Source: an uncultured Alphaproteobacteria bacterium | GTDB lineage: Bacteria; Pseudomonadota; Alphaproteobacteria; Sphingomonadales; Sphingomonadaceae | Length of the DNA: 64,000 nucleotides | Direction: 5' to 3' | Assembly: GCA_963750615.1 (NCBI GenBank) | Contig: CAVVRK010000006.1 | Location: 132,017-196,016 of the forward strand | Program-made: the position numbers and the translations under genes | The notes under the pieces: model-generated | The model's input: the letters and a program-made list of their open reading frames with translations, nothing else | What the model was told of the DNA's origin: nothing | Database searches by the model: none | Part shown: positions 8,997 through 46,475 of the stretch, piece by piece | Layout of the letters: every line of letters begins with the position of its first letter | How positions within the stretch are numbered: the first letter of the stretch is position 1

Positions 8997-9025
8997 ACGG
9001 CGGGGCGTTCCAGATTGAGAACGCC

Positions 9026-27000: not shown

Positions 27001-27320
27001 ACAGTACAGCGCCAGAGATACCACACAAACTAGCAAATCATTCTCACGCCAAGGCGTACTATGGCATTTTCCTTCTGCACAGCGAGGAGGCGGCATTCGC
27101 CTGGACAGAAAAACATGTGGAAGCTGCTTGCGCCATCGAACATCTGGTAGTGGCCGCCATCGCAGAGAATTCACTGAATCCAGCCAGTATAGAGGCTGCC
27201 ATTCGTAAAGGCGTATTGCCGGTCCTGTTCGGTCTCTTCGGTTTGGACAAAGCAAAGCTAATGACAGACGAGATCGTCAACATTACACGCATCGGACTCG
27301 CCAATGGCAAACTTGGCTGA
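24018..27320 (+). CDS. hsdR: type I R-M restriction endonuclease/helicase subunit
   Basis: About 1100 aa. N-terminal nuclease region (PDIVGFVNGIPMIVIEAK), helicase motif I TGSGKS and motif II DEGHRSQ. The start may be the GTG at 24042, overlapping the Abi stop. Confidence 0.95.
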   Translation: METLGWHAVTTPNTDELSTSHIPALATLCALGWRFLAPADCLEQRGGEGGALLRADLIAHLSRHRFVHRGAFHPLSTNSIDFIVRTLSAPPLQDGLLAANQRVYDWLTLGITVTEFVDGKKLSITVPLINWQDVEANRFVVTEELAFTTSDGTRTRRPDIVGFVNGIPMIVIEAKRPVSGGSQRMVEEGISQTIRNQKADEIPQLFAFAQLLFSVSGSDGRYGTTGTPRKFWASWRDEEFDEAHCLAVKNGTAAEDRESLLTNRVRDVRDGLSRRWSAEMAVNEQDRLLIGLATPARLLEFVRFYMFFDRKVGKIAARHQQMFGIRKLIAEISKVRPSDHPKGPGREGGTIWHTTGSGKSFTMVLLCKALLLHSELAECRVIVVTDRTDLEKQLAGNFLTAGAFGTSLSDKEGGRSKANSGRDLAKRIGKGSDRIIFTIINKFASASKLPECRNDSSNMIVLVDEGHRSQGGENHERMKKALPQASYVAFTGTPLLKGEKTEGRFGKIIHAYTMRDAIDDGTVTPLLYEERKPVLDINERAIDSWFDVITRGLTDEQKTDLKKKYASRGQVYGAEGRIRRIAWDIATHFRTNFKDLKLGLKGQIATDSKLSAIRYKKALDETGLVSSAVVISPPDTREGHEDVNESELPEVQQWWAANVKGDPEDSEKQIVDDFSTEGRPDLLIVVDKLLTGFDEPRNAVLYIDKPLKAHNLIQAIARVNRLHDAKQFGFLVDYRGILTELDTAIGDYQDLAERTQGGFDIADLDGLYRDVCTEYKRLPSLHDELWGIFDGVQNRADEEQFRQFLVPRYSDSEGGERSDLNQKRREDFYEALTAFGMCLKTALSSRSFFEDGAFSEKQITEYKRDLRFFTALRQQAKQDSFETIDFSQYEKQIRKMIDTNVIGEEIDANGQLLPVVGLGQPADPDTWTEEKTRNETDIIRSRLTRTIEHELADDPYAQAHFSDLLRKAIAEAAALFDHPRKQYDIFDGLESAVTNSTAPEIPHKLANHSHAKAYYGIFLLHSEEAAFAWTEKHVEAACAIEHLVVAAIAENSLNPASIEAAIRKGVLPVLFGLFGLDKAKLMTDEIVNITRIGLANGKLG

Positions 27321-31400: not shown

Positions 31401-32190
31401 CATCGGCCTCAAGAGCCATGGCTTCCTGGCGCTCTACGTAAACACCGCCGACCGCTGCCTCGCCAAGCTTGGCTGCAACATCAGCGAGAATCTGTTCCTC
31501 GCCATTAGGACTCAACTCTTCGATCTTTTTCGACGCAGGCTTCTCAAAATCAGCCTCGATCTTTTCCAACGTCTCTCCTTCTTCGGCACTCGCGCGATCG
31601 GCACGTGCAACTGCACTAAAACGTTCTATGTAATCGGCATGGTCTTTCGCCGAACCCCGACGCGTTTTGCGTCTGGTGTCCGACTTGCGTTCGACCCTAG
31701 TCTTACTGATCGGTTCATAGCTAAAGTGGAAGCTGGTAACACCGTCGGCTGTCTCGGCCCGAATTGGCCGAACGATCGGAACAGCAAGCCACGTTAGCTT
31801 CGTGATCGCTGTACCTTTCTGCGGCGTTGGGTCGCGGCTCGGGTCTTTCCAGTCGTTGACCTCAGTGCGCTTAATATCTCCGCCCACTTTTCCAGTGATG
31901 TGGCTATCGCCGCCTGGCAAATATAGGTTCACCGTTTGGCTGATTTCGACGCCACGCATGGCTGAACGGGCAGCTGCCTGGTCGTGATCATCTCGACCAA
32001 TTGAGGGCGCACCTTCATTGTTAACGCTTGTTGGCTCCGTGCCGCCGCCAAACGAGGGCTTCACTTGTTGCCCGATCACCATCCCTGTGTTATCTAGATT
32101 TGGTCCGTCGATATAGACAGCCATCTTTAAGTCCAGCGACTGCTGTACTCCGCGCGCCAATTTCAGATTTTCTTCGAAATGCCGTTCCAT
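28450..32190 (-). CDS. large MobA/MobL-type relaxase-like protein
   Basis: 1246 aa. Residues ~150-460 hold ...RRGSAKDHADYIER... (candidate catalytic Tyr region), IIGELPHEV and VMHAPDHTNNDKNWHFHLIYHDRP (HxDxxxxxxHxH-like histidine triad). I saw no Walker A helicase motif. The C-terminal 700 aa is coiled-coil or low-complexity. Confidence 0.6.
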   Translation of the reverse strand: MERHFEENLKLARGVQQSLDLKMAVYIDGPNLDNTGMVIGQQVKPSFGGGTEPTSVNNEGAPSIGRDDHDQAAARSAMRGVEISQTVNLYLPGGDSHITGKVGGDIKRTEVNDWKDPSRDPTPQKGTAITKLTWLAVPIVRPIRAETADGVTSFHFSYEPISKTRVERKSDTRRKTRRGSAKDHADYIERFSAVARADRASAEEGETLEKIEADFEKPASKKIEELSPNGEEQILADVAAKLGEAAVGGVYVERQEAMALEADGSAVLYTNIDADPFERRKFWELVEKNARNPGKDYMRIRVIANPRLWSDVFSAPDCPKFEVESKEPLDPKGEIRIQNEDNDRMRAHMLRHGWNPPKRREVDGLNHEEEATAELQQDKADGIVFEDARGGRIQYRIIGELPHEVDQDARVRILRAFAQEFERRGLPYVAVMHAPDHTNNDKNWHFHLIYHDRPAARFVNDRLHPANAHLAPNVKDPTQTATMKAEARNILGTADFEKFAGQWDFSIPYTRKSVSGNTRTRNPFAQPKHRECQKKDFIPKLRKVLADITNEELASAGHRRRLDPRDYSKIGIPRQPDKHLGTQAAQHETSGISTDVGRENERNQWTYQMTMIQRFRQAEEEKLRCDIAKMRRANQAIVGEDPRADIRERLIARYEQIRRAAIEHEVIARTMQENIDRAASRAHKVKLTCEKHLKAIRDKKASKRQMCHKSDYENKLNEAVTHLAGLKTMFANEAMQVSRSAEQAKLLQIEAEESRADYDILIQQAHAEQGIANSQVPSDDKPATSAPSSTLDQTATISTVGVTALTKAQMDDFVDTVFKQKIRLVMRNGKIDLAYEDPRMDVIINAPNFASLEVRLKVIYEVQTEAINDLLEVLNNNPQAVESRTGPNGQAVVTLKMNDKRLQEALQHYHDDKDISLAIANAFASQRPSERVPEAVSKATSVAASPATATSVLPTAKPAPQSTREPAVPYQDIVRRALFERTLSGTRWEETDNKRFLILTNSSAERLQVPSRIEIAPELAETMDKTISAADREEFRLRKYIEAKHRSVVITPLNIIIPDYAPEELREIAAKHSNDPERRKLYAAMPQLADEWYKSTRQYQVDFAVSPEGKEVARLADERTEIERSPQKFSKREDDNKPDPRYAALVPAKTEEKGRPFVLGIHPKLDTYLLAEARNDDVARRLAAEEIIKDVDAARATKRLTLEDRKRIKDDSIYNDITRGNNPHPQNSLGLDIGRQIDRGLSPQSD

Positions 32191-34834: not shown

Positions 34835-34856
34835 CCCACAATTGCGGTATGCGGAC
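34835..34856 (+). repeat. core-like repeat (first of array)
   Basis: CCCACAATTGCGGTATGCGGAC is a variant of CACGACAACATTGCGGAC. Confidence 0.4.
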
Positions 34857-34877
34857 GTGTGTTCATCGGCTGAACGA

Positions 34878-35101
34878 AGGGCCGCTTTCGGACATTACGC
34901 AACAAAAGCCGACAGTCAGCAGACGACAAAATTCTGTTGAAAAAGTCAGTCCGCTTAATTTTATTGCGCTGCGAAGAAACGATTGCATCCTGTGGCACGG
35001 GAACTTGAATGAATGTTCCAGACAGAGCCAATGATTTGGAAAGAAATTTCGCGAAGCTCTGGCAGATCGACTTTTTCAACAGAATTCACAACATTCCGGT
35101 C
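34878..35101 (+). repeat. cassette-boundary repeat interrupted by a MITE
   Basis: AGGGCCGCTTTCGGACATT...GCCGACAGTCAGCAGACGACAA, then the MITE, then CACAACATTCCGGTC. The left 52 nt are colinear with the 62-nt site at 35158-35219. Confidence 0.55.
34930..35086. mobile_element. 157-bp MITE, copy B
   Basis: Perfect 18-bp terminal inverted repeats AATTCTGTTGAAAAAGTC / GACTTTTTCAACAGAATT. Interior inverted relative to copy A (16565-16721). Confidence 0.75.
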
Positions 35102-35157
35102 ATTCAGGCAACAAGTCCGTGCCTTCGTTAGCTGCCGTCGATTCATACGCTGAACGA

Positions 35158-35219
35158 AAGGCAGCTTTCGGACATTTTGCGTTGAAAGCGGTCTGTCGGC
35201 TCACGACAACATTGCGGAC
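35158..35219 (+). repeat. cassette-boundary repeat CBR-1 (62 nt)
   Basis: AAGGCAGCTTTCGGACATTTTGCGTTGAAAGCGGTCTGTCGGCTCACGACAACATTGCGGAC. Confidence 0.65.
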
Positions 35220-35225
35220 GTTGGA

Positions 35226-35504
35226 ATGCTGCGGCATACAGTGCTTATGAGCGAGCATGAACGCAGTCCTGAGGATCAATGGCACGACCAGTCCATGAGT
35301 GTGGTGCAACAGTTTGGTGCGGCGCTCCTAGAACTTAACAAAACCAATCCTTTTCCAGATCTGCCCTTGTTACCGAGAGCGATCAACCACCTCATGACCG
35401 AGCTTTGGGATAGTGGTTTCAGCCAATCCGAGATCAGGGAAGCCTTCAACGATGCAGTGACCGACATTTCTCGATATGCAGCTGGCGATGAGGTGCGAAG
35501 TTAA
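35226..35504 (+). CDS. cassette ORF A, hypothetical (92 aa; start may be 35247)
   Basis: The only ORF between CBR-1 and CBR-2. Its stop overlaps the first nt of CBR-2. Confidence 0.5.
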   Translation: MLRHTVLMSEHERSPEDQWHDQSMSVVQQFGAALLELNKTNPFPDLPLLPRAINHLMTELWDSGFSQSEIREAFNDAVTDISRYAAGDEVRS

Positions 35505-35590
35505 GTCTCCTTCCCACTCAATTACAGCGATACCGTAAACAAAATGCCGTTGTCAAAAGCGGCCTGTTCGGACAGCACAACAATGCGGAC
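35503..35590 (+). repeat. cassette-boundary repeat CBR-2 (88 nt)
   Basis: AAGTCTCCTTCCCACTCAA...AAAAGCGGCCTGTTCGGACAGCACAACAATGCGGAC. Confidence 0.6.
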
Positions 35591-35625
35591 CCAGAATAAT
35601 ACGACTGAGCTATAAGGATGACGGG

Positions 35626-35979
35626 ATGAATCGAAGCAATCTTCTTTGGTTTTGTGGTGGAGCTGCCGCCAGCACTATTGCCGGTCTCGCGGCTTACGTT
35701 CTGCAGACGCCCCAGAAGGAAGATCGTTGGTTCCTCCGCATTGCTGAAGATTTGGAGGTGTCAAAGCCTAAGTTAGTTCCTGAGAGCTGGCAGACCGCTG
35801 AAATCGCCCGTAGATGTGGCGCAAAGGTGTTTGACGCCATTCCAGGAGATGGAACGGATCAGGGGGATGCAACTCGTGTTCCGTTAACAGTTGAAAACAA
35901 CCCGGCTATGGGCTGCATTGTTGAACGCGCCAGGCAAGCAAATTTGTGGGTTGGCGTTCAATTGGAAGACGCGAACTAA
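35626..35979 (+). CDS. cassette ORF B, hypothetical membrane-anchored protein (117 aa)
   Basis: N-terminal hydrophobic helix LLWFCGGAAASTIAGLAAYVL. The single ORF in this unit. Confidence 0.55.
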   Translation: MNRSNLLWFCGGAAASTIAGLAAYVLQTPQKEDRWFLRIAEDLEVSKPKLVPESWQTAEIARRCGAKVFDAIPGDGTDQGDATRVPLTVENNPAMGCIVERARQANLWVGVQLEDAN

Positions 35980-36066
35980 TTGCTGAAACGCAGTGACATC
36001 TTGTCCATGCTAATGATCGGCGTAGCTGGTATAGCATTCGCAAAGTTGCGCCCAGAGACTAACAGA

Positions 36067-36127
36067 ATGTCGGCTCGCCAAAACTTTGAAAATATTTGGC
36101 ACTGCGGCGACACAACCCTAATGCAAC
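36067..36127 (+). repeat. degenerate cassette-boundary repeat CBR-2b (61 nt)
   Basis: ATGTCGGCTCGCCAAAAC...GCGGCGACACAACCCTAATGCAAC. Confidence 0.4.
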
Positions 36128-36196
36128 ATAACCGAGCCATGCTGCCTTAGGCTCTAGCCAAACTGTTTGGAACTGACAGCCTTGCCGTCCACTGCC

Positions 36197-36511
36197 CTAA
36201 CCAAGCAAGGTAATATTGGGGTGGTTGGCCAATCTGGCAATGACGCCGTCAATGCTCCCTTGATCAGCCGCAAAGTTGCTCCCACGAGAATGCATCTCTT
36301 CAATGACTGCCCATTCCAGGATGCCAAGCCACTCCTCTCCTTGACGACCCTCGAACACATCGAAAAAGCGACGAAACGGCTCTCGGCTTTCTAACCAATC
36401 CATCGAAGCTACAGAGTTTGCTTGGCGGCCCCATTCCTCGGACGTACTGATTGCGATTAGCACCTCGGTGATGCGGGCGGCGACGTCAGCTGATGCAAGA
36501 TTATAGCGCAT
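36197..36511 (-). CDS. cassette ORF C, hypothetical (104 aa)
   Basis: Complete ORF MRYNLASADVAARITEVL... Its 5' 61 codons plus upstream region are duplicated at 36559-36788. Confidence 0.55.
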   Translation of the reverse strand: MRYNLASADVAARITEVLIAISTSEEWGRQANSVASMDWLESREPFRRFFDVFEGRQGEEWLGILEWAVIEEMHSRGSNFAADQGSIDGVIARLANHPNITLLG

Positions 36512-36788
36512 TGGACTGGACTATATACTCCACGGCCAAAAAACGAAATGTCCGCTCTCCACTCCTCTCCTTGACGACCCTCGAACACATCGAAAAAGCG
36601 ACGAAACGGCTCTCGGCTTTCTAACCAATCCATCGAAGCTACAGAGTTTGCTTGGCGGCCCCATTCCTCGGACGTACTGATTGCGATTAGCACCTCGGTG
36701 ATGCGGGCGGCGACGTCAGCTGATGCAAGATTATAGCGCATTGGACTGGACTATATACTCCACGGCCAAAAAACGAAATGTCCGCTCT
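36329..36788. repeat. perfect tandem duplication, 2 x 230 bp
   Basis: By eye, 36329-36558 equals 36559-36788 with no mismatches. ORF 36457..36741 is the resulting truncated second copy. Confidence 0.85.
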
Positions 36789-36839
36789 TCACAACGAATC
36801 TGCCAGAGCGGACGGTCAGGTCACGACAACATTGCAAAC
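36778..36839 (+). repeat. cassette-boundary repeat CBR-3 (62 nt)
   Basis: ATGTCCGCTCTTCACAACGAATCTGCCAGAGCGGACGGTCAGGTCACGACAACATTGCAAAC. Internal 9-bp hairpin GTCCGCTCT/AGAGCGGAC. Confidence 0.65.
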
Positions 36840-36860
36840 ATCTGCCTCACATTGTAGATC

Positions 36861-37280
36861 ATGCAAATGAGCGCGTTTTCGACAGGTTGGACTTTTTCGA
36901 TTTGCCTTCCGATCTGCCTTTTCTTGGGTGGTTCGTTCCCAAATGATCATGAACTTGTGTCGCACGACCTGCGAGTTGAAAATGATTATTTCTTAGGAGC
37001 CGTTCCGATCAAGCCTGAAAAATGGGTAACTTCCTCTGACCATCCAGAGAGCCTTGTGGGGCGTATCGAAGTTGGGGAAGTGGGCATAGCATTTGACATC
37101 GCCGTAAACGGGCGAGTTGTAAATTGCAGGGTCACGGACAAGAGCGGTAATTCGCGCTTGGACAGTGTGCCCTGTAAATTGGTTATCCGACGCGCCAGAT
37201 TTAACCCGCTGCCGGATACCGAAGAAATCCAGCCTACTGCACGTGGCCAAATGCGATTTCGCTTCAGCCAAGTCAACTAG
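36861..37280 (+). CDS. cassette ORF D, TonB C-terminal-like domain protein (139 aa)
   Basis: N-terminal hydrophobic segment. The C-terminus ...VNCRVTDKSGNSRLDSVPCKLVIRRARFNP resembles the TonB_C fold signature. Confidence 0.5.
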   Translation: MQMSAFSTGWTFSICLPICLFLGGSFPNDHELVSHDLRVENDYFLGAVPIKPEKWVTSSDHPESLVGRIEVGEVGIAFDIAVNGRVVNCRVTDKSGNSRLDSVPCKLVIRRARFNPLPDTEEIQPTARGQMRFRFSQVN

Positions 37281-37283
37281 TCG

Positions 37284-37345
37284 AAGTCCGCCTCCCTCCC
37301 TTTGACGCCGAAAGCCGGCTGTCCGGGCACGACAACATTGTGGAC
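37284..37345 (+). repeat. cassette-boundary repeat CBR-4 (62 nt)
   Basis: AAGTCCGCCTCCCTCCCTTTGACGCCGAAAGCCGGCTGTCCGGGCACGACAACATTGTGGAC. Confidence 0.65.
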
Positions 37346-37360
37346 CACCGGTCATGGACC

Positions 37361-37897
37361 TCATGGGCGCTTGTAAATGGAGTATGCCCCCAATATGGTA
37401 AATTGAGGCACTGTAGTTGATATGACATCCAAGCAGCCACATCCTGTCATAAACCTATAGTGCTTTGCCGTTCCAGTCGCTCCCGTAGAATTTTCTGCAG
37501 TATTCCGCCACATCTCCGACTGCGCTTCCAAAAACGGATCGCCCACCACTTGGTAAGCAAAATGATTGGGGATAATCCCGCTCCACTCGTCTGGATCACT
37601 CTCGGTGCTAAGCGCAAACTCGTCCAACATTCGAACAATCACGTCGTTACTAGCAAAAGTTATCGCTATTATTTGGTCGTCATCTTCTGACAGGAATATG
37701 GCCGTGTTTGTTTGCCAGTCGAACGAGCACAAATCACAGTTGTACAAATTGGACCATGCTACACAGCTCTCAATGGGAGAGTATTGTATCATGCTATGCA
37801 GCCTACAACGTAGCTGCAGGCAAAGCCAAGGCCCTGTGTAAGTCGTCGTCGCTCGATCTTCGCATTTCCATCGACGCGATGAAACTGACATCCCCAT
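37361..37897 (-). CDS. cassette ORF E, hypothetical (~178 aa)
   Basis: ORF 37361..37924 trimmed to the ATG at 37897. The start codon abuts the left arm of CBR-5. Confidence 0.5.
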   Translation of the reverse strand: MGMSVSSRRWKCEDRATTTYTGPWLCLQLRCRLHSMIQYSPIESCVAWSNLYNCDLCSFDWQTNTAIFLSEDDDQIIAITFASNDVIVRMLDEFALSTESDPDEWSGIIPNHFAYQVVGDPFLEAQSEMWRNTAENSTGATGTAKHYRFMTGCGCLDVISTTVPQFTILGAYSIYKRP

Positions 37898-37957
37898 GTC
37901 CGTTTCCGATAACCAAAACGCCAAACCGGCCAGGCAGCAAACGACAACATTGCGGAC
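37896..37957 (+). repeat. cassette-boundary repeat CBR-5 (62 nt)
   Basis: ATGTCCGTTTCCGATAACCAAAACGCCAAACCGGCCAGGCAGCAAACGACAACATTGCGGAC. Confidence 0.65.
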
Positions 37958-37981
37958 GCCAGCAGAATTATCCGATGGAGG

Positions 37982-38554
37982 TCATTCACCCATTTGGTAA
38001 GTTGCAGTTGCGAGCACTTGCACCCTATCGAGTTTTTGACCCGACTGCTTTGAGCGACTGATGATTATGGACAGAGCGGGTTCCTGTCGGTTGCGGAACG
38101 TTGTCGTTACAACAGCTCCTTTTGAATTAGTTTTTAGCTGCTGCCAGCGATCGTTGAAGTTCGCCGATGACAGAACGGTCTGCACAATTGGTTGAAGATC
38201 GGTGCCGCCGCCGCCCGTAATGTGACACATGGGCAGCTGATCGGACACCACCAGAACGTAGCCAGCAGTCGGAGTAGAATTGATGCGCCAATATTGGTTC
38301 GCTCGTCGCATTTGCTTTGGCGGGAGGTTTACCTCTTCCACTCTGTCAACTCTGCCCATCTGCTCCCCAAGGCCAACCGCCTTGATGAACGGACCCGTTC
38401 CCTCAGTCCAACTTGCCGGATTTAGCAACCATTCCTCACACCCTCGCAGCGCACCGTCAAAACCTCGCTCAAGGCTCGGTTCAGCGTGAGCGGGCAGGAC
38501 GAAGACGACAGAGCCCAAGAAGGCGGACAGAATGTGACGCATAAGCTGATACAT
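37982..38554 (-). CDS. cassette ORF F, secreted hypothetical protein (~190 aa)
   Basis: From the ATG at 38554 the product starts MYQLMRHILSAFLGSVVFVLPAHA, which is signal-peptide-like. The start is uncertain (ORF extends to 38611). Confidence 0.5.
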   Translation of the reverse strand: MYQLMRHILSAFLGSVVFVLPAHAEPSLERGFDGALRGCEEWLLNPASWTEGTGPFIKAVGLGEQMGRVDRVEEVNLPPKQMRRANQYWRINSTPTAGYVLVVSDQLPMCHITGGGGTDLQPIVQTVLSSANFNDRWQQLKTNSKGAVVTTTFRNRQEPALSIIISRSKQSGQKLDRVQVLATATYQMGE

Positions 38555-38564
38555 ACCCGAATGA

Positions 38565-38626
38565 ATGTCCGCTTGCCACAACGTTTTCGCCACAGCTGAC
38601 GGGCCGGACACGACAACATTGCGGAC
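38565..38626 (+). repeat. cassette-boundary repeat CBR-6 (62 nt)
   Basis: ATGTCCGCTTGCCACAACGTTTTCGCCACAGCTGACGGGCCGGACACGACAACATTGCGGAC, followed by AT. This gives perfect 8-bp terminal inverted repeats ATGTCCGC/GCGGACAT. Confidence 0.7.
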
Positions 38627-38653
38627 ATTCAGCCTGAATGATAAACTTGCCTT

Positions 38654-38866
38654 ATGGTGACTATCTATATGCCGCTTTTAGATGAAGGTACGGATGTATG
38701 GCGTCCTGTTGATGCAACCGCGCTGAAGCGGGATGTCTACAAAGTGGGAGGGCAGATGGACAAGGACGAGATTTGGGCTTTCATGCCTGGCACCATCGTC
38801 CGCTGCGAGTCGAAGGTGCTTAATAACGGCGAAGCAAAATTAATTGCGGTTGCCGCTGCGGACTGA
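38654..38866 (+). CDS. cassette ORF G, hypothetical (70 aa)
   Basis: The single ORF between CBR-6 and CBR-7. Confidence 0.5.
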   Translation: MVTIYMPLLDEGTDVWRPVDATALKRDVYKVGGQMDKDEIWAFMPGTIVRCESKVLNNGEAKLIAVAAAD

Positions 38867-38954
38867 ACTTCAGCTCTCCACAACTTTCCAGTAATCTAAC
38901 TGGTCGACTGGCGACACTATAAGCAGACGGTCACGGCAAGACAACATTGCGGAC
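38867..38954 (+). repeat. cassette-boundary repeat CBR-7 (88 nt)
   Basis: ACTTCAGCTCTCCACAAC...AGCAGACGGTCACGGCAAGACAACATTGCGGAC. Same length as CBR-2. Confidence 0.6.
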
Positions 38955-38975
38955 ATCCGCCAGTCGTGCTTTCTT

Positions 38976-39344
38976 GTGTCTATGTCTACGCGCCCCTTCA
39001 ACAACCCTGAGCGAGAGTTTCTCGAGAAGATCGTGGAGAGGCTGCCCAAAGATACAGGGGAACGGTTGCTCGCCGACATGTCTGTCGCCCAAGTCATCGA
39101 AGAGGGTGACTTTCTCCAAGTCACGTTAAGCGGCTACGAGAGGCCAGATTACGAAGGACATCAGAACCTGCCTTTCGAGGGCAAGCTTATGGATGTGCGC
39201 GGAGAACCAGTGTCTATTCTGGTGAATATCGATCAGAACGAGCGACTGCTTGAGGTAGAAACTATCTGGTGGAACAGCGAGAGCGGAACGGTCCTAAACT
39301 GGTCCACATTAGAGATCATCGCAACGCCGCAAGTAAAATGCTGA
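38976..39344 (+). CDS. cassette ORF H, hypothetical (122 aa)
   Basis: The single ORF between CBR-7 and CBR-8. Its stop abuts the ACGTCCGC left arm. Confidence 0.5.
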   Translation: MSMSTRPFNNPEREFLEKIVERLPKDTGERLLADMSVAQVIEEGDFLQVTLSGYERPDYEGHQNLPFEGKLMDVRGEPVSILVNIDQNERLLEVETIWWNSESGTVLNWSTLEIIATPQVKC

Positions 39345-39428
39345 CGTCCGCTCCCCACAACATTTCAGCCATTGGCACTAGCTAAACTGATCCGCAAAAG
39401 CGGCCTTTGGCAGCCAAAAATCAGGCGA
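39344..39428 (+). repeat. degenerate cassette-boundary repeat CBR-8 (~85 nt)
   Basis: ACGTCCGCTCCCCACAAC...AAAAGCGGCCTTTGGCAGCCAAAAATCAGGCGA. Colinear with CBR-2 but with a decayed core. Confidence 0.4.
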
Positions 39429-39552
39429 TGAACGAACGTCATGTTTTGTGAAACCTAACACGATTAACGAATGGCTGAAAAGTTAGCGAGAACAGACTTC
39501 CGCTGCGGGCGCCTTTAACGTCAGCTTTCCGCGATTTTACTCTGAAACCGGA

Positions 39553-40941
39553 TGAGGTGGATGGCTCCCGCTCACGGCCTTTAAGTGCCAAGATGGGTTG
39601 CTGTCATGCAAACCCGAGCAAAGGAGCCATCCGCCATGGAGATTAGCACAATCGGCCTCGATTTGGCCAAGAACGTTTTTCAAATTCATGCAATTGACGC
39701 GACCGGCGAGGTTGTTGTGCGCAAAATGCTGCGACGATCGCAGATGTTACACTTCTTCGAGAAGCTGCCGCCATGCCTAGTCGGTGCAGAGGCCTGCGGG
39801 ACATCTCATCATTGGGCCCGCGAGCTGACGAAGCTCGGGCATGAAGTGCGTCTAATGCCGCCGGTTTATGTAAAGCCCTACGTGAAGCGCGGAAAGAATG
39901 ACGTCGCAGATGCCGAGGCGATATGCGAAGCTGTGACACGCCCTACGATGCGGTTCGTCGCTGTCAAATCACGCGAACAGCAGGCGGCGCTATCACTGCA
40001 CCGCGCGCGCAGCCTGTTGATCAGGCAACGCACACAACTGGTCAACCTGATGCGCAGCATGCTCGCTGAGCTTGGCATTGTCATTCCGGTTGGACTCGAG
40101 AAAGCGCTGCAGATGGCGCGCCAGATTGTCGATGGAGAGGTCGTTCTTGATCTGCCTGCAGAAGCAACGACCGTGGTCGCAATGCTGTCGGGACAAATGC
40201 TTCAGCTTCATGTGCAGCTTCGTAAGCTCGACCTTCGCCTTGCCCGCTTACAGCGCAGCGACGATACGGCGCGCCGTCTGGCAACGATCCCCGGTATCGG
40301 GCCTGTTGGCGCGACAGCACTTGCCGCATCGGTGACCGACCCAAGCCAGTTCGCCTCGGGGCGTCAGTTCGCCGCCTGGCTTGGGCTGACCCCGCGTCAG
40401 AACTCGAGCGGCGGCAAGGAGCGCTTGGGCCGCATCACCAAGATGGGCGACAAGTACCTGCGGCAGCTACTCGTTATCGGCGCAACGTCGCTCGTCCGAC
40501 GTGCCAAGGATAAGCCTGAGGCGGTAGATCCGCGCTTCGTCGCCTTGTTGGCAAGAAAGCCTGCGCGGGTTGCCACGATCGCGATGGCAAACAAGATGGC
40601 CCGGATCGCATGGGCGGTCATGGCGCGCGGTGACGTCTTCCGACCCGGCCACGTGCCGGTACTGGCAGCATGATGGATTAACAGTTTAGCTGGGGAGATC
40701 AGCTTACCGAAGTTGTGAGAGCGAAGTGATGTGATGGCAAAACCGGTCGGACCGGGAGCAAGGACAACCCAAGGAAAGTCCTAGGCACAATAGCCTGCAA
40801 AGCCGATAGGACCTTGCTCGTGGACCCCATCAGGGCCAGCAGTCTCAACCGACTGCACAAACAGGCCGGACAGACGACTGCACCCGACCAAATGCCAGTT
40901 CATCATTTTATGCTTGCAACGCGGGAGCCATCCACAGAGGA
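39553..40941 (+). mobile_element. IS110-family insertion sequence, IS1111-like subgroup (~1389 bp)
   Basis: Boundaries come from comparison with the uninterrupted CBR-10. 15-bp subterminal inverted repeats GTGGATGGCTCCCGC (39557-39571) / GCGGGAGCCATCCAC (40921-40935). A single DEDD-type transposase gene is followed by 268 nt of non-coding right end. Confidence 0.85.
39636..40673 (+). CDS. IS110-family transposase
   Basis: MEISTIGLDLAKNVFQIHAIDATGEVVVRK...VGAEACGTSHHWAREL...IPGIGPVGATALAA. AAGGAG RBS before the ATG at 39636. Confidence 0.92.
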   Translation: MEISTIGLDLAKNVFQIHAIDATGEVVVRKMLRRSQMLHFFEKLPPCLVGAEACGTSHHWARELTKLGHEVRLMPPVYVKPYVKRGKNDVADAEAICEAVTRPTMRFVAVKSREQQAALSLHRARSLLIRQRTQLVNLMRSMLAELGIVIPVGLEKALQMARQIVDGEVVLDLPAEATTVVAMLSGQMLQLHVQLRKLDLRLARLQRSDDTARRLATIPGIGPVGATALAASVTDPSQFASGRQFAAWLGLTPRQNSSGGKERLGRITKMGDKYLRQLLVIGATSLVRRAKDKPEAVDPRFVALLARKPARVATIAMANKMARIAWAVMARGDVFRPGHVPVLAA

Positions 40942-41060
40942 CTTTCCAGACACGACAACCTTGTGGACGTTCCAATTCCAAGGCACAATCGCCTTATGAG
41001 CTTTTTGACATTCCGATACCGATATGATGGCACTCCCACTCATGTTCTTGACGACTTCGG

Positions 41061-41666
41061 TTGCCCGATTGGGTTACTCCCGATAAGTTGACATTTGTCG
41101 GGATGGTTGGAGCAGGCATGGTGTTTGCTGGATACCTCAGCAGCAATATCGCAGAAGATTGGCTGTGGCTCACCATAGCTGGTTACATTGTCCAGTGGTT
41201 TGGCGATTCTACCGATGGTAGTTTGGCTCGGTATCGCAACATCGAGCGGCCGCGCTACGGGTATTTTCTTGACCATAGTTGTGATGGTCTTGCTACGACC
41301 TTAATCGTGGCTGGGATTGGCCTGAGCCCCTACGTTGCCCTGGAAGTTGCGTTAATAGCGTTGGCGGGATACTTGCTGTTATCAATTCACGCATTCTTGT
41401 CGGTTCGCGTTTTGGGCGAGCTGAAGCTTTCTTATTTGAATCTCGGGCCAACGGAACTGCGATTTGTTCTCATCGCCCTGACGATCGCGATGATGTTCTT
41501 CGGACACGGGTCTGGATGGTTCGGTCAAACCAGCGGCTTCGACATTTTTGTAGGAATGGTTGGTACTTTGCTTGTCACACTATTTGCGTCGCAAACTTTG
41601 CGTACCGCAGCGCGGTTAGCAAAAGAAGAACCTGCCCGGAATGAGGAGTGGCGAAGCCGGAAATGA
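41061..41666 (+). CDS. CDP-alcohol phosphatidyltransferase family protein (5' end uncertain)
   Basis: DSTDGSLAR...GYFLDHSCD matches the D(x)2DG(x)2AR...D(x)3D motif, with multiple TM helices. TTG start. A 31-codon ATG ORF (40996-) in another frame runs into it, so a 5' frameshift is possible. Confidence 0.7.
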   Translation: MPDWVTPDKLTFVGMVGAGMVFAGYLSSNIAEDWLWLTIAGYIVQWFGDSTDGSLARYRNIERPRYGYFLDHSCDGLATTLIVAGIGLSPYVALEVALIALAGYLLLSIHAFLSVRVLGELKLSYLNLGPTELRFVLIALTIAMMFFGHGSGWFGQTSGFDIFVGMVGTLLVTLFASQTLRTAARLAKEEPARNEEWRSRK

Positions 41667-42010
41667 ATTATCGAAAATACTCGGATGGGCGTCCGCTGAC
41701 CTCAACAAATCTGCCGAACACGCCGGCAGTGACAGCCCCCGAAACTGGGCACTCGAGAGATGACAATTCTAGTGAACGAATGTCAGGTTTTGACTGTCAG
41801 GATCGGGCCAGTGAATGGCTGGAATGTTAGCGGGATCTGCCAGCGAGTTTTGCTTCAGTTTAACCGTCCGGTTTCGCTCTTAATGCAGCAATAATTGCAG
41901 GTACGCACACGATAACATAGCCGCAACAAATGTAATCGTTGCGCTCCAAACTTAGCGCTAATCCATCACGCATGTTCCATAATCGCTAACGCTGAGGCAT
42001 AGGTGCGAAG

Positions 42011-43126
42011 ATGATTGTTTTTGGGCCAATGAGCATCACTTTGTTGATTTGCGCCGTACAGGGCCTTCTGCTTGCGGGGCTATTGCTGAACGCGCAGCGA
42101 AACACATTAGCGAATCGATGGTTGGCGCTGCTGATCCTCGCCGTGGCGGCGCTGATGACGCCTTACATCATCGGCTATGCCGGGTTTTATGAGAGGTGGC
42201 CGTGGCTAAGCTTTGCGCCGCTGTCCTACACTCTCGCATTCGGGCCGCTGCTTTACTTCTACACTTCCACGCTGATCGGCACGAGGTGCGCACGGGTTTG
42301 GCCGCATTTCGTGCCGGTGGCGATGCAGTTTACTGCCTATGCGTTGGTGTTCCCGCTCCCCTTGCAGACCAAAAACTGGTGGAACACGATTGCCCATGCG
42401 CCGCTGATTGACCCAGTGCTCGATATCGCCTCACTTGCGAGCATCGCTGTTTATAGCGCAGCGGCCTATCGCCGCTATCAGGCCTATCGCACTTGGCTGG
42501 GGGAAAACCGCACTGACGGGGTAGATTTCGAGCCCAACTGGATTCGCAATTTTCTGGTCGCGCTGGCGCTTATCGCGATAATTTGGGCTGGCTTCATGAT
42601 CGCCAAATGGGCCAACCCGGCACGCGATTATTTCGACCAATTCCCGCTCTATGTCGGATTTTCAGTTTTGGTGCTGTATCTTGGTATTGGCGGGTGGCGA
42701 CATTCCGAAACGCCTTTTCCGGCAGAAGCAACTGCACAATTTCTACCCCCTGAACCTGCCACATCTGTTCGGGACTGGGCAGCTCAGGGTAACGAATGGC
42801 TTACGCGGATCAATGCCGAGCAGTTGTGGCGCGACCCTGCGCTGACGCTCGCAGGACTGGCGCGTATACTTGGTACCAATACCACCTATCTCTCACGCGG
42901 TCTGGGCGCCGCAGCCGGCGAAAATTTCAACGCTATCATAAACCGCCGGCGAGTAGCCGAAATGCAGCAGCTGCTTGATATGCCTGGCGAGGAACGCGAA
43001 TTGCTGACGCTTGCCTTTGATGTCGGTTTCAATTCCAAGGCTAGCTTCAACCGCGCTTTTCGCGATCTTGCCGGGATGAGCCCCAGCCAATGGCGGCTCA
43101 AATCACAAAAATTGCTTGTAATCTAA
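42011..43126 (+). CDS. membrane-anchored AraC-family transcriptional regulator
   Basis: About 6 N-terminal TM helices plus a C-terminal HTH_18 (LAGLARILGTNTTYLSRGL...FDVGFNSKASFNRAFRDLAGMSPSQWR). Confidence 0.85.
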   Translation: MIVFGPMSITLLICAVQGLLLAGLLLNAQRNTLANRWLALLILAVAALMTPYIIGYAGFYERWPWLSFAPLSYTLAFGPLLYFYTSTLIGTRCARVWPHFVPVAMQFTAYALVFPLPLQTKNWWNTIAHAPLIDPVLDIASLASIAVYSAAAYRRYQAYRTWLGENRTDGVDFEPNWIRNFLVALALIAIIWAGFMIAKWANPARDYFDQFPLYVGFSVLVLYLGIGGWRHSETPFPAEATAQFLPPEPATSVRDWAAQGNEWLTRINAEQLWRDPALTLAGLARILGTNTTYLSRGLGAAAGENFNAIINRRRVAEMQQLLDMPGEERELLTLAFDVGFNSKASFNRAFRDLAGMSPSQWRLKSQKLLVI

Positions 43127-43195
43127 CCATTGAGGCGCGTGTGCTAAGCGTATCGGTCAAAGGAGGTAGCGTTACCAACCACTGGAGCGATCCTG

Positions 43196-45181
43196 ATGAA
43201 AAGCGTATATCTTGCCGCACTTGCGACCCTAAACACATTGCCATTTCCCTTGAGCGCTGCCGCCCCTGAAACGGCTGCGACCGCCACCCCCGCCGCCCCG
43301 CGTTATACTCCGCGAGAGCTCACCGCCGAGCAAGCCTCCCGCGATGTCGACCTGTTGATCCGCGCACTCGAAACGGTGCACCCAGGCCTATACCGCTATA
43401 CCCCCAAGCCTCAGATTGACGTAGCCATTGTGCAGCTCAAAGCGGCCGCCTCGGATCCGGTCACTGAACTCGCGCTTCACGGTCACATCGCGCGCCTCCT
43501 TGCCGCTATCCACTGTGATCACACGAAGGCGGAAATGTCTGAGGCGCTTACCGCATACCGCACCAACAATCCTACTCACCTGCCGCTGCGGTTCCAGCTG
43601 ATTGAAGGGAGGATGATTGTGATCTCGAACGACGGGCAGGAAGGCGCGCCGCCTATAGGTAGCGAGATTCTCAGCATCAACCGCATGGCCGTGCCTGTTT
43701 TGCTGCTCAAGCTGGCGCCGATGGTGTCCTATGACGGTACAACCGATCAGGCGATTGCGGCGAAGTTGGCCGATGATAGCGACCTGATGGGCGATGATTT
43801 CAACGAGAATTACCCCACTTTGTTCGGATTTCCGGATAGCTGGCAGATCGAATGGAAGCCGGTGGGTGGCACAGTCTCCACCGTAGCAAGCCTCCAGCCG
43901 ATCAAGTTTGCACAGTGGACCGCGCTGGCCGGACCAGGCGCAAAGTATCGCAGCGAATTCTACAACGCAATCACTTGGCGGATGAACGGCAAGGCAGCGC
44001 GGCTGGGCATCGATACCTTCGTCAATTATCGCAATCCAGTGCAGGCGACCGCCTTCCTTGGCGGCTTTTTTGCCGCCATGAAGGAGGCCGGGACCGAGCA
44101 CCTGATCCTTGACCTACGCAAGAATGGGGGCGGATCGGAGGATGTATCTGTGGCGCTTGGGCGCTATCTCATAGGCCGCCCGTTCACGTGGTCAAAGCCG
44201 GTCCGTTACAAAGCAGTGCGTTATGGTGACCTTCCGCAATATTTCGAAACCTGGGGCGACCGTGAGGCACGTTTCAATCCTCCCATGAGCGCGTTTACGC
44301 GGAGCACAGATGGCTGGTATGATCGCATCCCGCTGCTGAGCGGAGCAGCGCTAAGCGACGTGGACACTACCTTTGAACAAATGCCGATTGGAGAACTTGG
44401 TTTCAGTGGAAGGCTCACAATCCTGAGCGGTCCGCGGAACGGCTCAGGCGCTACACGCACAATTGCACAGCTAAAGGAAAAAGCTAGAGCGGTTGTGATC
44501 GGCGAAGATAGTGCCGGTAGCGCTGAAGGGCCAACTTCTGGCAGCATATTTCTGATGAAACTCCCCGAGAGCGGGATCAAGGTACGTATCCCCGAGGGTT
44601 GGAACCGCACCGATATTGACAGTTTTACGGTTGGCAAAGGTGTGGCGGTCGATCAGCTTGTCGTCCCGACGCTTGCCGATTTCGAAGCAGGGCGAGAACG
44701 AGCGATCGGCGTTGCTCAAGGCTTGCTTCTCGCTCGCAGCGATACCGCAATGCTCGTTGCCAAAGCGTTGGCAGGGACATGGACTGGAACACTGGATTAT
44801 CGCGATTACAGCAAAGATACCCGCGAAACCTTGCCCACCCTCATGCAGAGTGACGGAACAGAGCTTTTTTGGACCTTCGATGACGGCCCTGGGAAGACTG
44901 TGCGATCAGTTGAAAAATGGGCGTTCGATCCTGCTGGTCGAACCTTGGCTATCACTAGCGGTAAGAACGCACCCGATCAGTGGCGCGTAGCCGAAGCCCG
45001 CATCTCCGCCGATGCCTCTTCGCTCACCATCGTCCTTGATGGGAGTAGCGAGGAGCGTGGCCGCACGGTCATAGCCCGCAAAATCCTTACCCGTGACGGA
45101 AACCGGATACGCATCACTAAACAGACGCGCGTTACTGGGGAACCGTTTCTTATGCGGCAGAGCTATGAACTGCGGCAGTAA
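43196..45181 (+). CDS. S41-family peptidase-like secreted protein
   Basis: Signal peptide MKSVYLAALATLNTLPFPLSAAA. LILDLRKNGGGSEDV matches the S41 DLRxNxGG motif. Confidence 0.75.
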   Translation: MKSVYLAALATLNTLPFPLSAAAPETAATATPAAPRYTPRELTAEQASRDVDLLIRALETVHPGLYRYTPKPQIDVAIVQLKAAASDPVTELALHGHIARLLAAIHCDHTKAEMSEALTAYRTNNPTHLPLRFQLIEGRMIVISNDGQEGAPPIGSEILSINRMAVPVLLLKLAPMVSYDGTTDQAIAAKLADDSDLMGDDFNENYPTLFGFPDSWQIEWKPVGGTVSTVASLQPIKFAQWTALAGPGAKYRSEFYNAITWRMNGKAARLGIDTFVNYRNPVQATAFLGGFFAAMKEAGTEHLILDLRKNGGGSEDVSVALGRYLIGRPFTWSKPVRYKAVRYGDLPQYFETWGDREARFNPPMSAFTRSTDGWYDRIPLLSGAALSDVDTTFEQMPIGELGFSGRLTILSGPRNGSGATRTIAQLKEKARAVVIGEDSAGSAEGPTSGSIFLMKLPESGIKVRIPEGWNRTDIDSFTVGKGVAVDQLVVPTLADFEAGRERAIGVAQGLLLARSDTAMLVAKALAGTWTGTLDYRDYSKDTRETLPTLMQSDGTELFWTFDDGPGKTVRSVEKWAFDPAGRTLAITSGKNAPDQWRVAEARISADASSLTIVLDGSSEERGRTVIARKILTRDGNRIRITKQTRVTGEPFLMRQSYELRQ

Positions 45182-45305
45182 TGCTTTTCTAATATGCGAT
45201 CCGCGTGCCGTTTTGTAACTCGGACAGATCGATATTTGCCTAAAGCATAATGAAGTCACTATTTCATAATCTCTCCTTGGCCATTCAGGCCAAAGGAGTT
45301 GTGAC

Positions 45306-45938
45306 ATGGGAATTTCAGATCTTGATCCTGACGCACATGGTCGTCGTCCTTGGAACGCTGGCAATATGGTGGGCGCTAAGCGTCCGCTGAAGCCTCGCGA
45401 TGTCTGGGCAATTCGGTTCTTTCTAGACGAGCATCGACGACTGCGCGACCGCGCACTTTTTGATTTGGCTATCGATAGCAAGCTGCGCGGTTGTGACATC
45501 GTAAAAATGAAAATTGGTGATATCGTTGCTGGTGGGGTAATTCGAAATCGGGCGACGGTCATGCAACAAAAAACCAAGCGCCCCGTCCAGTTCGAGATCA
45601 TGACTGAGGCGCGCCAAACTCTTCTCAAATGGCTTAACCGTCGTGGAGGCACTCACGACGATTTCATCTTCCCAAGCCGTGTCAATTACATGGGCCATCT
45701 CAGCACGCGCCAATATGCACGGTTGGTTGATGAGTGGGTCGGGGCAGTCGGTCTTAATGTGCATGAATACGGGACACACTCAATGCGACGAACGAAAGCC
45801 TCGATGATCTACAAGGCGACGGGAAACCTCCGGGCTATCCAAATATTGCTGGGTCACTCAAACATTGAGAATACCGTCCGCTACCTGGGCGTTGACATCG
45901 ACGATGCAATTTCGCTGGCTGAACGGACGGAAATTTGA
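45306..45938 (+). CDS. short (210 aa) tyrosine recombinase, catalytic domain only
   Basis: Catalytic residues are plausible: R in DLAIDSKLRGCDIV, HSMRRT (HxxR) and LLGHSNIENTVRYLG (H...Y). Only ~35 aa precede the catalytic domain. Confidence 0.85.
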   Translation: MGISDLDPDAHGRRPWNAGNMVGAKRPLKPRDVWAIRFFLDEHRRLRDRALFDLAIDSKLRGCDIVKMKIGDIVAGGVIRNRATVMQQKTKRPVQFEIMTEARQTLLKWLNRRGGTHDDFIFPSRVNYMGHLSTRQYARLVDEWVGAVGLNVHEYGTHSMRRTKASMIYKATGNLRAIQILLGHSNIENTVRYLGVDIDDAISLAERTEI

Positions 45939-46065
45939 ACGTAATGGCTCCTCGCATTAGCGGGGAGCCATTCACCGGTTCGGTCATCTTGATCTGACCG
46001 AGATTTGACGGCCGGCCAGCAGGAATGTCAGACGGCGCCGCTTCTACTCGGCCACGTGTCATAGA

Positions 46066-46128
46066 ATGTCAGCTTTCCGCGCTTTTTGCCACGAAACCGG
46101 ACGGTCAGGACACGACAACTTAGCGGAC
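46066..46128 (+). repeat. cassette-boundary repeat CBR-10 (63 nt, last of array)
   Basis: ATGTCAGCTTTCCGCGCTTTTTGCCACGAAACCGGACGGTCAGGACACGACAACTTAGCGGAC. Lies 128 nt downstream of the short recombinase gene. Confidence 0.65.
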
Positions 46129-46475
46129 GTTTTTTTCACTGGTGGTATCAACTAAAGGCAGTCATTCGTTCAGTTTCCTTTTCTGGGCCGGGAGCGGACC
46201 GTCTGCTTCTGTTTGTGGATAAATGGATAGCTACCGTTTTGGCTGCCCAAAACGTCTGGCTTTCGCCGCTAACATTGCCACTCTCAAGTGAACGACACTC
46301 CTACCTAATAGCTGCTATAGGATCATACGTTGACCTTGACGATGCGGTGTCGGGATTGACAGTATCGAGAATGGATGGCTGCACTAGCAGAATGCGCCCT
46401 AGCAACCATTAAGCACTGCCCCGGCTTGAGAAGTTTCCCGAAGGCCATTTCGGTTAATAACGAGAACGAAGCTCG

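Follow-up and report, generated by a model that had tools for sequence, protein, structure and literature searches.

An array of directly oriented sites in a tRNA-Leu island

The DNA analysed here (the window) is a stretch of 64,000 nt from a genome of the Sphingomonadaceae (contig CAVVRK010000006.1). It contains an island of ~46 kb with a tRNA-Leu(taa) gene (11495-11580) at one end and an exact 60-nt repeat of the 3′ end of this tRNA (57786-57845) at the other. Besides an integrase (11619-12833, minus strand), the island codes for a MobA/MobL relaxase (28450-32190), exonucleases, an AAA_25 protein and an Arc-like protein. This integrative mobilizable element holds, between 34.8 and 46.1 kb, a whole array of structured repeats interspersed with small open reading frames (ORFs). 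Near the far end of the array lies the gene of a 210-aa tyrosine recombinase, hereafter rec210. An earlier note, made from the letters of the DNA, had described it as an integron-like cassette array. Our analysis indicates that the repeats are very probably site-specific recombination sites bounding mobile units. Moreover, it seems fairly probable that they belong to a gene-cassette system analogous but unrelated to integrons, in which a recombinase of the rec210 family acts on double-stranded sites.

The motif CACGACAACATTGCGGAC, with up to 3 mismatches, occurs nine times in the window and always on the plus strand, against 0.17 occurrences expected by chance; this number was reached in 0 of 100 shuffles of the window, and the matches coincide exactly with the nine site ends listed in the earlier note. 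A profile built from 71 aligned sites and run with nhmmer detects 11-12 full or partial sites of 62-240 nt, all on the plus strand and all within the island, which bears out the claim of at least 11 copies in a single orientation. The minus-strand matches are only low-scoring echoes of the palindromic left arm. With the same profile, no significant match is found in the flanks (1-11.5 kb and 57.8-64 kb), as the earlier note had stated for the flanking core DNA, and the 62-nt sites, already recognized as a length class, align without gaps.

Most neighbouring sites are set apart by one small ORF, which can lie on either strand; two of these ORFs have a Pfam match (TonB_C and DUF6984) and the rest have none. 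The rule of one ORF per interval proposed earlier thus holds for most intervals but not for 35591-36776, which contains two ORFs and a degenerate site. On the other hand, the supposed ORF-less units at 35101-35219, 39429-39552 and 57178-57300 are not separate cassettes: they correspond to the long left extension (TGAACGAAnGGCAGCTTTC...) carried by a second site subtype. Exact-protein look-ups for the left part of the array (35.2-39.3 kb) returned the same strain only, or no match.

Anatomy and folding of the sites

The consensus of the 71 sites is AAYGTC[C/A]GCTTTCC...AAAGCGGAC-TGTCnGGAC-ACGACAAC-ATT-GCGGAC-RTT, or, in short form, AAYGTCCGC...ACGACAACATTGCGGACRTT. The right ~35 nt are nearly invariant while the left part is loosely conserved; of the 17 core positions, 14 show no variation or a conservation of at least 90%. 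The opening A(T/A)GTCCGC, previously attributed to every site, is present in only about half of those in the window (S1 and S9, for instance, begin with GGCAGC and GTCAGC; site names as in Table 1). The conserved 29-bp core is CTGTCCGGACA-CGACAAC-ATTGCGGACAT. Read as a duplex, the right part of the site would constitute a classical tyrosine-recombinase core, with the 11-bp arms CTGTCCGGACA and ATTGCGGACAT, which show an inverted match at 7 of 11 positions, placed around the asymmetric 7-bp block CGACAAC. Upstream of the core are 30-200 nt of less conserved accessory arms, and in many sites the left half contains a weaker direct copy of the core layout (ACGTCCGCTTT-CCACAAC-AAAGCTGCCAA). A more general alphaproteobacterial variant of the site reads ATGAACGAAnGGCAGCTTTCA...GGAACGnCnGC-wnT-GTYGGCG.

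An inverted repeat of 8-9 bp at the ends is seen in about two thirds of the copies; over the 71 aligned sites, pairing of the two ends is 68%, without covariation, and a two-hairpin model is 73% paired with weak covariation. RNAalifold predicts 0 pairs and no consensus structure for the same alignment. Folding of single strands, which the earlier note had suggested as a check, was done as DNA for eight window sites and both strands: the z values (-3.4 to +1.2) are mostly no better than those of shuffles, the shapes differ and a common hairpin does not emerge. Furthermore, an Rfam scan of the window at gathering thresholds matched only tRNAs and an abiF RNA, with no match at the sites. Since no test yields a conserved fold, we conclude that the site is conserved as sequence, unlike attC, and the model of an attC-like folded single strand was dropped. 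In addition, the AAC/GTT triplets of the consensus lie outside the inverted arms of the site and not inside, and RYYYAAC/GTTRRRY ends are lacking, so that the sites are non-canonical as stated before.

Joints at the sites in close relatives

Comparison of relatives shows that the sites behave as apparent recombination joints: homology was found to end at cores in S9, in the P0002 loci, in L124/L125 and in L046 (loci other than the window carry L numbers). A comparison of this kind had been proposed in the earlier note. Over 41813-46128, three metagenome contigs (L131, L132, L134) match the window with 99.2% identity, and homology stops exactly at 46128, the end of S9. The triplet following CAAC at this joint is TTA vs ATT, and downstream of it the relatives have a serralysin/type I secretion cluster, the window NhaA. 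On the left, the homology to L131 begins at 41813, inside S8b (41680-41921), where the sequence is the core-like GGAATG-TTA-GCGGGA. In L131, the shared block is preceded by ~137 nt that look like the left part of S8 and not like the CDP-alcohol phosphatidyltransferase unit, which has no counterpart in the short stretch preceding AraC in this contig (it begins 335 nt upstream of AraC). The AraC-S41 peptidase-recombinase unit is common to the window and L131-L134. With edges of homology at S8b and S9, this 4.3-kb unit is therefore site-bounded and, at least on its right, is adjoined by other DNA in a close relative.

The P0002 loci (six contigs, L118-L123) are at least 99.9% identical on the side of the recombinase gene and continue into several different DNAs on the other, namely small ORFs, Fic/AbiE, an element resembling an integrative and conjugative element (ICE), a plasmid backbone, or LacI/TonB genes. 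Their breakpoints (9846-9866) are located within the core of a site 80 nt from the recombinase gene, where ...GTCCAAC is followed by AAAGCGGAC, TTGGCTGCC or GAAGCTGCC; in a longer reading, ...GATCGTCCAAC is followed by AAAGCGGACATCC, TTGGCTGCCCC or GAAGCTGCCAC. Similarly, L124 and L125 diverge directly after ...CGCCAACGTCCG (longer reading ...GGACCGCCAACGTCCG), and L046 has the left part of a site in common with L082 and the cassette downstream of it in common with L018, the switch occurring at the core. An apparent flank shared by L018 and L082 was discarded, being inverted relative to the site. L065 and L112 have an 84%-identical flank in common that ends behind a dienelactone hydrolase gene, ~40-60 bp short of the first site, and their arrays differ. 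Finally, one site-bounded cassette of ~290 bp is present in two arrays of the same S. contaminans genome (L038/L110, 82% identity).

The sites differ more than the DNA around them. S9 and its equivalent in L131 (4388-4454) show 6 differences in 68 nt, more than in the 99-99.9%-identical flanks, and a substitution inside the 7-nt block is seen in two of the six P0002 contigs. Such an excess is consistent with mismatch-containing exchanges between non-identical sites.

The site family beyond the window

Loci were sampled from species-representative genomes by seeding on the perfect 17-mer ACGACAACATTGCGGAC, and the counts below refer to the matches listed. The 17-mer is present in at least 117 genome stretches. 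About 76 of them are from Sphingomonadales (Sphingorhabdus, Novosphingobium, Altererythrobacter, Sphingopyxis, Sphingobium, Erythrobacteraceae) and have full-length sites; the other ~41 belong to unrelated phyla and give no profile match, consistent with chance. Altogether 152 sites were counted in the window and the 117 loci. Orientation is uniform in all 29 loci with more than one site (29/29); the sum of (n-1) over these loci is 62, and the probability of such uniformity by chance is therefore ~2^-62. Neighbouring sites are separated by a median of 545 bp. In 53 gaps of 150-1600 bp, a median 88% of the length is taken up by the longest stop-free frame, which runs with the site strand in 37 cases and against it in 16 (~70% and ~30%). 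Most cargo ORFs (36/48) have no Pfam match and the rest fall in different families, save PEP-CTERM, which is common to two. The loci thus have the properties of an integron-like cassette array as a functional class: units of about one ORF, sites in the same orientation and unit-level polymorphism with joints at the sites.

Among the matches listed, stretches with the exact core number 1-5 per genome sampled, near-complete genomes (two) included; 4 were seen in S. profundilacus and 3 in S. contaminans. None of these genomes being complete, such numbers only suggest that the abundance is not that of a family of repetitive extragenic palindromes (REPs). As a plasmid search with the 38-nt core matched only three Novosphingobium records, the core lineage is mainly chromosomal. 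We also considered a recombinase gene beside every array, an idea that was rejected: when the ORFs with 100 aa or more from the 8-kb loci with sites were clustered, no recombinase recurred, the recurring families being ordinary ones only (SDR, dienelactone hydrolase, acyl-CoA synthetase). None of the families recurring in these 8-kb loci looked transposase-like on inspection, although no Pfam/HMM search for Y1_Tnp/RAYT was run. In five genomes from several genera, a site is found just 3′ of the dienelactone hydrolase gene (L065 2605-3706, L112 2034-3089, L093 7213-7963, L101 2703-3478 and L003), which suggests that this position is a conserved chromosomal entry point for arrays. A distinct site subtype (ATGTCTGttAAT.GGAAATC...) is present in L065, L112 and L093, and likewise in L110 and L023.

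The rec210 recombinase

The rec210 protein is hardly more than a Phage_integrase catalytic domain (residues 42-195 of 210 aa), with the motifs LRG (60), HSMRR (158), GHS (183) and VRY (191) all present. Its score with the integron-integrase model of NCBIfam (integrase_gron, TIGR02249) is 19.8 bits, and that of the island integrase 68.6 bits, against a cut-off of 265; PRK15417 gives 45 against a cut-off of 435. The absence of IntI reported earlier is thereby upheld. The NCBIfam Xer models score ~60 bits against cut-offs of 220-335, so that by these models rec210 is not a Xer protein either, and Xer catalytic domains are the closest solved relatives (E ~4e-6). The family is large and unusually conserved: identity is 79-94% across sphingomonad genera and 70-78% for members on Sphingomonadales and Rhizobiales plasmids and chromids, and the recombinase of the P0002 loci is 93% identical. 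At E<=1e-30 the family has 708 representatives, the best 150 of which are mostly ~200-280 aa long.

A GC-rich hairpin and then a site come after the recombinase gene in the window, L004 and the majority of 80 metagenomic loci; the site has either the canonical core (L151, L149) or the general variant. In 35 of 50 non-redundant loci, taken as a descriptive figure, the site starts no more than 150 nt from the recombinase stop codon on the same strand. Additional site copies near rec210 homologues, found independently, are on the gene strand in 73 cases and on the opposite strand in 6. Two arrays around a recombinase gene have six copies (L184) and five copies (L148); the units of L184 carry arsenic resistance, ParDE with the recombinase, a kinase, LysR with a dehydrogenase, and HipA. 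Two cases, the P0002 loci and L186, have the site on the other strand and upstream. The recombinase commonly shares its unit with a toxin-antitoxin pair or a toxin-like gene, such as Fic with MazE (L124-L129, L140), ParDE (L184, 4264-4832) or PIN (L141, 7376-7870). The earlier note was right to consider the short tyrosine recombinase relevant, but the enzyme is not just a gene of the terminal unit, since its family is linked to the sites across Alphaproteobacteria.

Two other features of the recombinase loci were observed. All aligned homologues (L118-L141) and the window (45270-45305) have a conserved palindrome, GGCCA-N3-5-TGGCC, just before the ribosome-binding site of the recombinase gene, which may be an operator or a hairpin in the 5′ untranslated region. 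Moreover, L131, the closest relative of the window, contains a second short Phage_integrase-family gene (199 aa, 12283-12882) 8 kb 3′ of the recombinase.

Proposed mechanism and alternative explanations

The interpretation that we favour builds on the site family, its uniform orientation, the single-ORF spacing, the core joints in near-identical relatives and the linkage between gene and site. A minimal tyrosine recombinase of 210 aa, of the family encoded at 45306-45938, would recombine two sites. Between direct repeats, this reaction would excise the intervening unit as a circle with one site, while in the reverse reaction the circle would insert at any other site; repeated insertion would then generate arrays of mostly single-gene units. 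The asymmetric crossover block would set the orientation of every site, whereas the ORFs could lie on either strand and would need their own promoters. The recombinase gene would itself belong to the array as a unit, one that it often shares with a toxin-antitoxin pair, and the conserved sites would serve as landing pads for an IS110-family element and for a small insert bounded by terminal inverted repeats (TIRs). On a broader scale, we see an even chance that Alphaproteobacteria own a widespread gene-capture system consisting of a ~210-aa recombinase and ~65-nt double-stranded sites, with mobile cassettes on chromosomes, islands and plasmids and with a recombinase gene that is itself a cassette, stabilised by toxin-antitoxin genes; the ACGACAACATTGCGGAC-core arrays of Sphingomonadales would be one lineage of it.

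Several points weigh against the proposed mechanism. The role of rec210 as the enzyme, the double-stranded substrate, the position of cleavage and the circular intermediates are all four things that we infer. The 11-7-11 core is a reading of the consensus, its arms agreeing at 7/11 positions, and the general alphaproteobacterial variant does not clearly have the same dyad. Since every partner has the conserved right arm and the sites contain additional substitutions, the crossover cannot be placed to the base, and breakpoints within conserved repeats of 17-35 bp could also come from homologous recombination. In addition, most array loci have no rec210 gene within the 8-kb stretch examined, so that rec210 would have to work in trans, and in the window the gene, part of a 4.3-kb unit, lies at the array's far end and not beside a dedicated primary site facing the array. 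As for the numbers, genome-wide counts are lower bounds because the sampling was seeded on a perfect 17-mer and the matches listed are incomplete, and the linkage in 35 of 50 loci is only descriptive because the profile was built from 30 of those sequences.

The repeats might be true recombination sites of a different enzyme, either the host XerC/XerD, as in Acinetobacter dif modules or integrative mobile elements exploiting Xer (IMEX), or a large island integrase, with rec210 as mere cargo or as the resolvase of its own unit. This explanation, which we regard as unlikely, would account for the arrays with no rec210 gene within 8 kb, agrees with the weak match of rec210 to the Xer models, and finds candidates in the integrases that array islands carry themselves (11619-12833 in the window, L120, L141). 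However, the core is unlike the dif consensus, the window integrase has its own 60-nt attachment repeat at tRNA-Leu, and there would be no explanation for the systematic gene-site module or for the arrays of same-strand sites near rec210 homologues. A similarly unlikely alternative is that of selfish extragenic repeats, similar to REPs and bacterial interspersed mosaic elements (BIMEs) or to miniature inverted-repeat transposable elements (MITEs), with joints produced by homologous recombination between copies and with cassettes that are simply small genes in a variable region. Many loci do have a single copy beside ordinary core genes, the 8-9-bp inverted ends (68% paired) and the taste of IS110-family elements for REP-like repeats would fit, and 17-35 conserved bp could sustain rare RecA events. 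Against it, one would not expect uniform orientation in 29/29 loci of REP/BIME or MITEs, except if their insertion were tied to the replication strand, the sites are few (1-5 exact-core matches per genome sampled, among those listed), each gap is tightly filled by one ORF, the same cassette with its sites recurs in different contexts and the family is tied to a dedicated recombinase gene. Inspection by eye, with no dedicated scan run, did not reveal target-site duplications at the site boundaries.

If the repeat were instead a cis-regulatory or RNA element placed after genes (a terminator, a small RNA or a protein-binding insulator), its intergenic position, its location after the terminator hairpin of the recombinase gene and the 70% of unit ORFs on the site strand would be understandable. 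The 30% of ORFs on the opposite strand at constant site orientation, the lack of an Rfam family match and of a conserved fold, and the joints exactly at the core in relatives make this very improbable. Still less credible, with a probability close to nil, is a divergent integron remnant, that is, a cluster of attC sites without integrase whose folded strands would be recognised by an IntI encoded elsewhere. The architecture, the unit size and the mostly unknown cargo do recall chromosomal integrons, and elements of the IS110/IS1111 type target attC. Nevertheless, this explanation is largely refuted by the missing IntI-like protein, the missing RYYYAAC/GTTRRRY ends and the missing conserved fold (no common hairpin in eight sites on both strands, weak covariation, no consensus structure). 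It also sits badly with the absence of integrons, In0 and attC site clusters that have no integrase (CALIN) from all 243 alphaproteobacterial genomes surveyed in PMC4889954.

Comparison with known systems

The array works like an integron yet is not one. What stands of the former integron reading is the architecture, with sites in one orientation bounding the units. In both systems mostly single-ORF units of ~0.3-1.4 kb end in a site of variable length with conserved ends, all sites share one orientation, the cargo is heterogeneous, mostly of unknown function and includes toxin-antitoxin units, sites are hit by IS110/IS1111-type insertion sequences, and close relatives differ at the level of units. 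Membership itself had to be rejected, as IntI, attC ends and a conserved folded single strand were all looked for and none was found. In contrast to integrons, the candidate recombinase comes from another family and comprises little beyond a catalytic domain (210 aa), its gene being a unit within the array and not belonging to a fixed attI platform; it is the sequence of the sites, and not their fold, that is conserved; ~30% of the ORFs lie on the opposite strand, without an evident common promoter; and the hosts are Alphaproteobacteria. In 243 genomes of this class, no integron, In0 or CALIN was found, which the authors of IntegronFinder called 'extremely puzzling' (PMC4889954).

Together with integrons, the dif modules of Acinetobacter (PMC6449649) are the closest functional analogues. 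They are plasmid-borne units bounded by 28-bp pdif sites for XerC/XerD (PMC6449649, PMC13141974), and dedicated insertion sequences target the pdif sites (PMC10132070). Like the units described here, they are small accessory-gene modules with double-stranded tyrosine-recombinase core sites, shuffled between replicons and mostly devoid of an adjacent integrase. They differ in that their 11-6-11 dif-like sites alternate in orientation and are served by the host XerCD enzyme, whereas our sites are all direct, measure 62-240 nt, have an unrelated sequence and travel with a dedicated family of small recombinases, in chromosomal islands as well as on plasmids. The dif consensus is GGTGCGCATAA-TGTATA-TTATGTTAAAT. 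Membership in this group was rejected in view of the direct orientation of all sites and of the core CTGTCCGGACA-CGACAAC-ATTGCGGACAT, which is without the ATAA/TTAT inner arms of dif.

Other systems share single traits. The TnpI/IRS sites of Tn4430 and the cer/psi-type sites of Xer also have a core of inverted arms, an asymmetric crossover and extra one-sided motif copies that could impose directionality, but they are single resolution sites of a transposon or plasmid and not multi-copy boundaries of units, and TnpI (284 aa) has an N-terminal domain. REP/BIME with their REP-associated tyrosine transposases (RAYT) are likewise short extragenic repeats with inverted ends that IS110-family elements favour; indeed, elements of this family typically target REP-like repeats, just as the IS110/IS1111 type targets attC. 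REPs, however, occur in hundreds of copies of alternating orientation, do not package single genes and are linked to an HUH transposase rather than a tyrosine recombinase. As with the dif modules, membership in the MITEs was rejected: the inverted repeat is only 8-9 bp long and found in ~2/3 of the copies, the orientation is uniform, and no flanking duplications were seen by eye in aligned flanks. Finally, in the IMEX arrays at dif and in the tycheposons at tRNA genes, direct attachment-site repeats separate the cargo and elements with and without recombinase coexist. Their repeats copy a host locus (dif, the 3′ end of a tRNA) at one position, whereas those of the present system are element-borne, occupy several loci per genome and mostly delimit units of one small gene.

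Full-text searches of the literature for the core sequence, for integron-like arrays in Alphaproteobacteria or Sphingomonadales and for non-integron cassette systems found no description of such a system; the matches to the core sequence were chance primer matches. Integrons are the textbook platform for single-gene capture. If our interpretation is correct, Alphaproteobacteria would have an independent solution to it, with a recombinase of about two thirds the size of IntI and with plain double-stranded sites. Variable regions of one class, in sphingomonads and probably in rhizobia as well, would thereby be accounted for. The system would provide a new marker of mobile DNA where annotation now says only 'tyrosine-type recombinase/integrase', and could furnish a very compact tool for site-specific recombination.

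Features of the array and of its island

Table 1. Sites (S), cassette ORFs (c) and associated features, in window coordinates.
Feature	Position	Strand	Remarks
S0, first array site, long-left-arm subtype	34876-35104	+	nhmmer 34876-34932, 32 bits; core interrupted
Sequence around the insert in S0	insert 34930-35086		...GACGACAA, insert, CACAACATTCCGGTC; sequence reading
S1, long-left-arm subtype, perfect core	35127-35222	+	profile match 35156-35222, 57 bits
c1, 92 aa, no Pfam family	35226-35504	+	gene also called in L130
S2, 88-nt form, weak left arm	35503-35590	+	right half 35549-35590, 21 bits
c2, 117 aa, no Pfam family	35626-35979	+	
Possible decayed site between c2 and c3, GAATGTCGGCTCGCC...GCGGCGACACAACCCTAATGC	36061-36135	+	65% copy; sequence reading
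c3, 104 aa	36197-36741	-	partly duplicated by 230-bp tandem repeat
S3, 62-nt class	36777-36841	+	48 bits
c4, 139 aa, TonB_C domain	36861-37280	+	E 3.4e-7
S4, 62-nt class	37284-37345	+	42 bits
c5, 143 aa (as called in L136), no Pfam family	37361-37792	-	
S5, 62-nt class	37896-37958	+	44 bits
c6, 190 aa (as called in L136), no Pfam family	37982-38554	-	
S6, best copy, perfect ends ATGTCCGC...GCGGACAT	38563-38629	+	60 bits
c7, 70 aa, no Pfam family	38654-38866	+	
S7, 88-nt form	38867-38957	+	profile match 38916-38957, 24 bits
c8, 120-122 aa, DUF6984	38976-39344	+	
S8 left part, long composite site, to insertion point after ...GAAACCGGA	39345-39552	+	profile match 39517-39552
IS110-family insertion sequence, transposase 39585-40673	39553-40939	+	interrupts S8
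S8 right part (core)	40940-40971	+	profile match 40929-40971
Unit with CDP-alcohol phosphatidyltransferase gene	41061-41666	+	
S8b, long, partly decayed composite site	41680-41921	+	profile match 41864-41921, weak
AraC-family regulator 42011-43126, S41 peptidase 43196-45181	42011-45181	+	cargo of 4.3-kb recombinase unit
rec210, 210-aa catalytic-domain-only tyrosine recombinase	45306-45938	+	candidate enzyme
S9	46064-46131	+	125 nt 3′ of recombinase stop codon
Outlying decayed site near right end of island	57115-57178	+	25 bits; then long-left-arm-type repeat 57202-57300
Outlying decayed site	16540-16740	+	split by related copy of TIR-bounded insert; repeat comparison, sequence reading

The sites and cassette ORFs are listed in Table 1, in which the possible decayed site between c2 and c3 is a weak part because it falls below the nhmmer threshold. 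A perfect 230-bp tandem repeat (36329-36558 and 36559-36788) duplicates part of c3 and an arm of S3, its second copy finishing in the left arm of S3 (GTCCGCTCT).

Two kinds of element make use of the sites. The one that interrupts S8 matches PF01548 and PF02371 (Transposase_20) of Pfam and reaches 346 bits with the NCBIfam model transpos_IS110 (cut-off 140); it belongs to the IS110 family, with a DEDD transposase and site-specific insertion. It is inserted in S8 at AAAsCGGA|GAC, and a copy at the same motif is found in a different genome (L029, 4578-5980; transposase 96% identical, 94% at the DNA level), which agrees with the insertion at a defined site position described earlier. A more distant IS110-family relative (68%) lies beside another site of L029 (1733-2776). 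These findings suggest an IS lineage specialised on the site family. The other element is an ORF-less insert of 157 bp (34930-35086) with 18-bp inverted ends AATTCTGTTGAAAAAGTC, located within the core block of S0 between ACGACAA and CACAAC. Related copies are found at ~16555-16721 in the window and at ~330 in L108; the insert is either a MITE that has the core as its target or a unit without an ORF brought in by the same recombination.

Elsewhere, the island has a type I restriction-modification locus (hsdM/hsdS/hsdR, 19341-27320) with an Abi_2/AbiF gene (23053-24045) between hsdS and hsdR, and the Rfam match to abiF RNA (23034-23069, 44 bits) is situated just 5′ of the AbiF gene. The core DNA outside the island contains an unrelated hairpin repeat, to which the earlier note had referred as a different repeat family: CCGTCrCCCTGAACTTGTTTCAGGGTCCAT, at 6025-6070 and 9024-9069.

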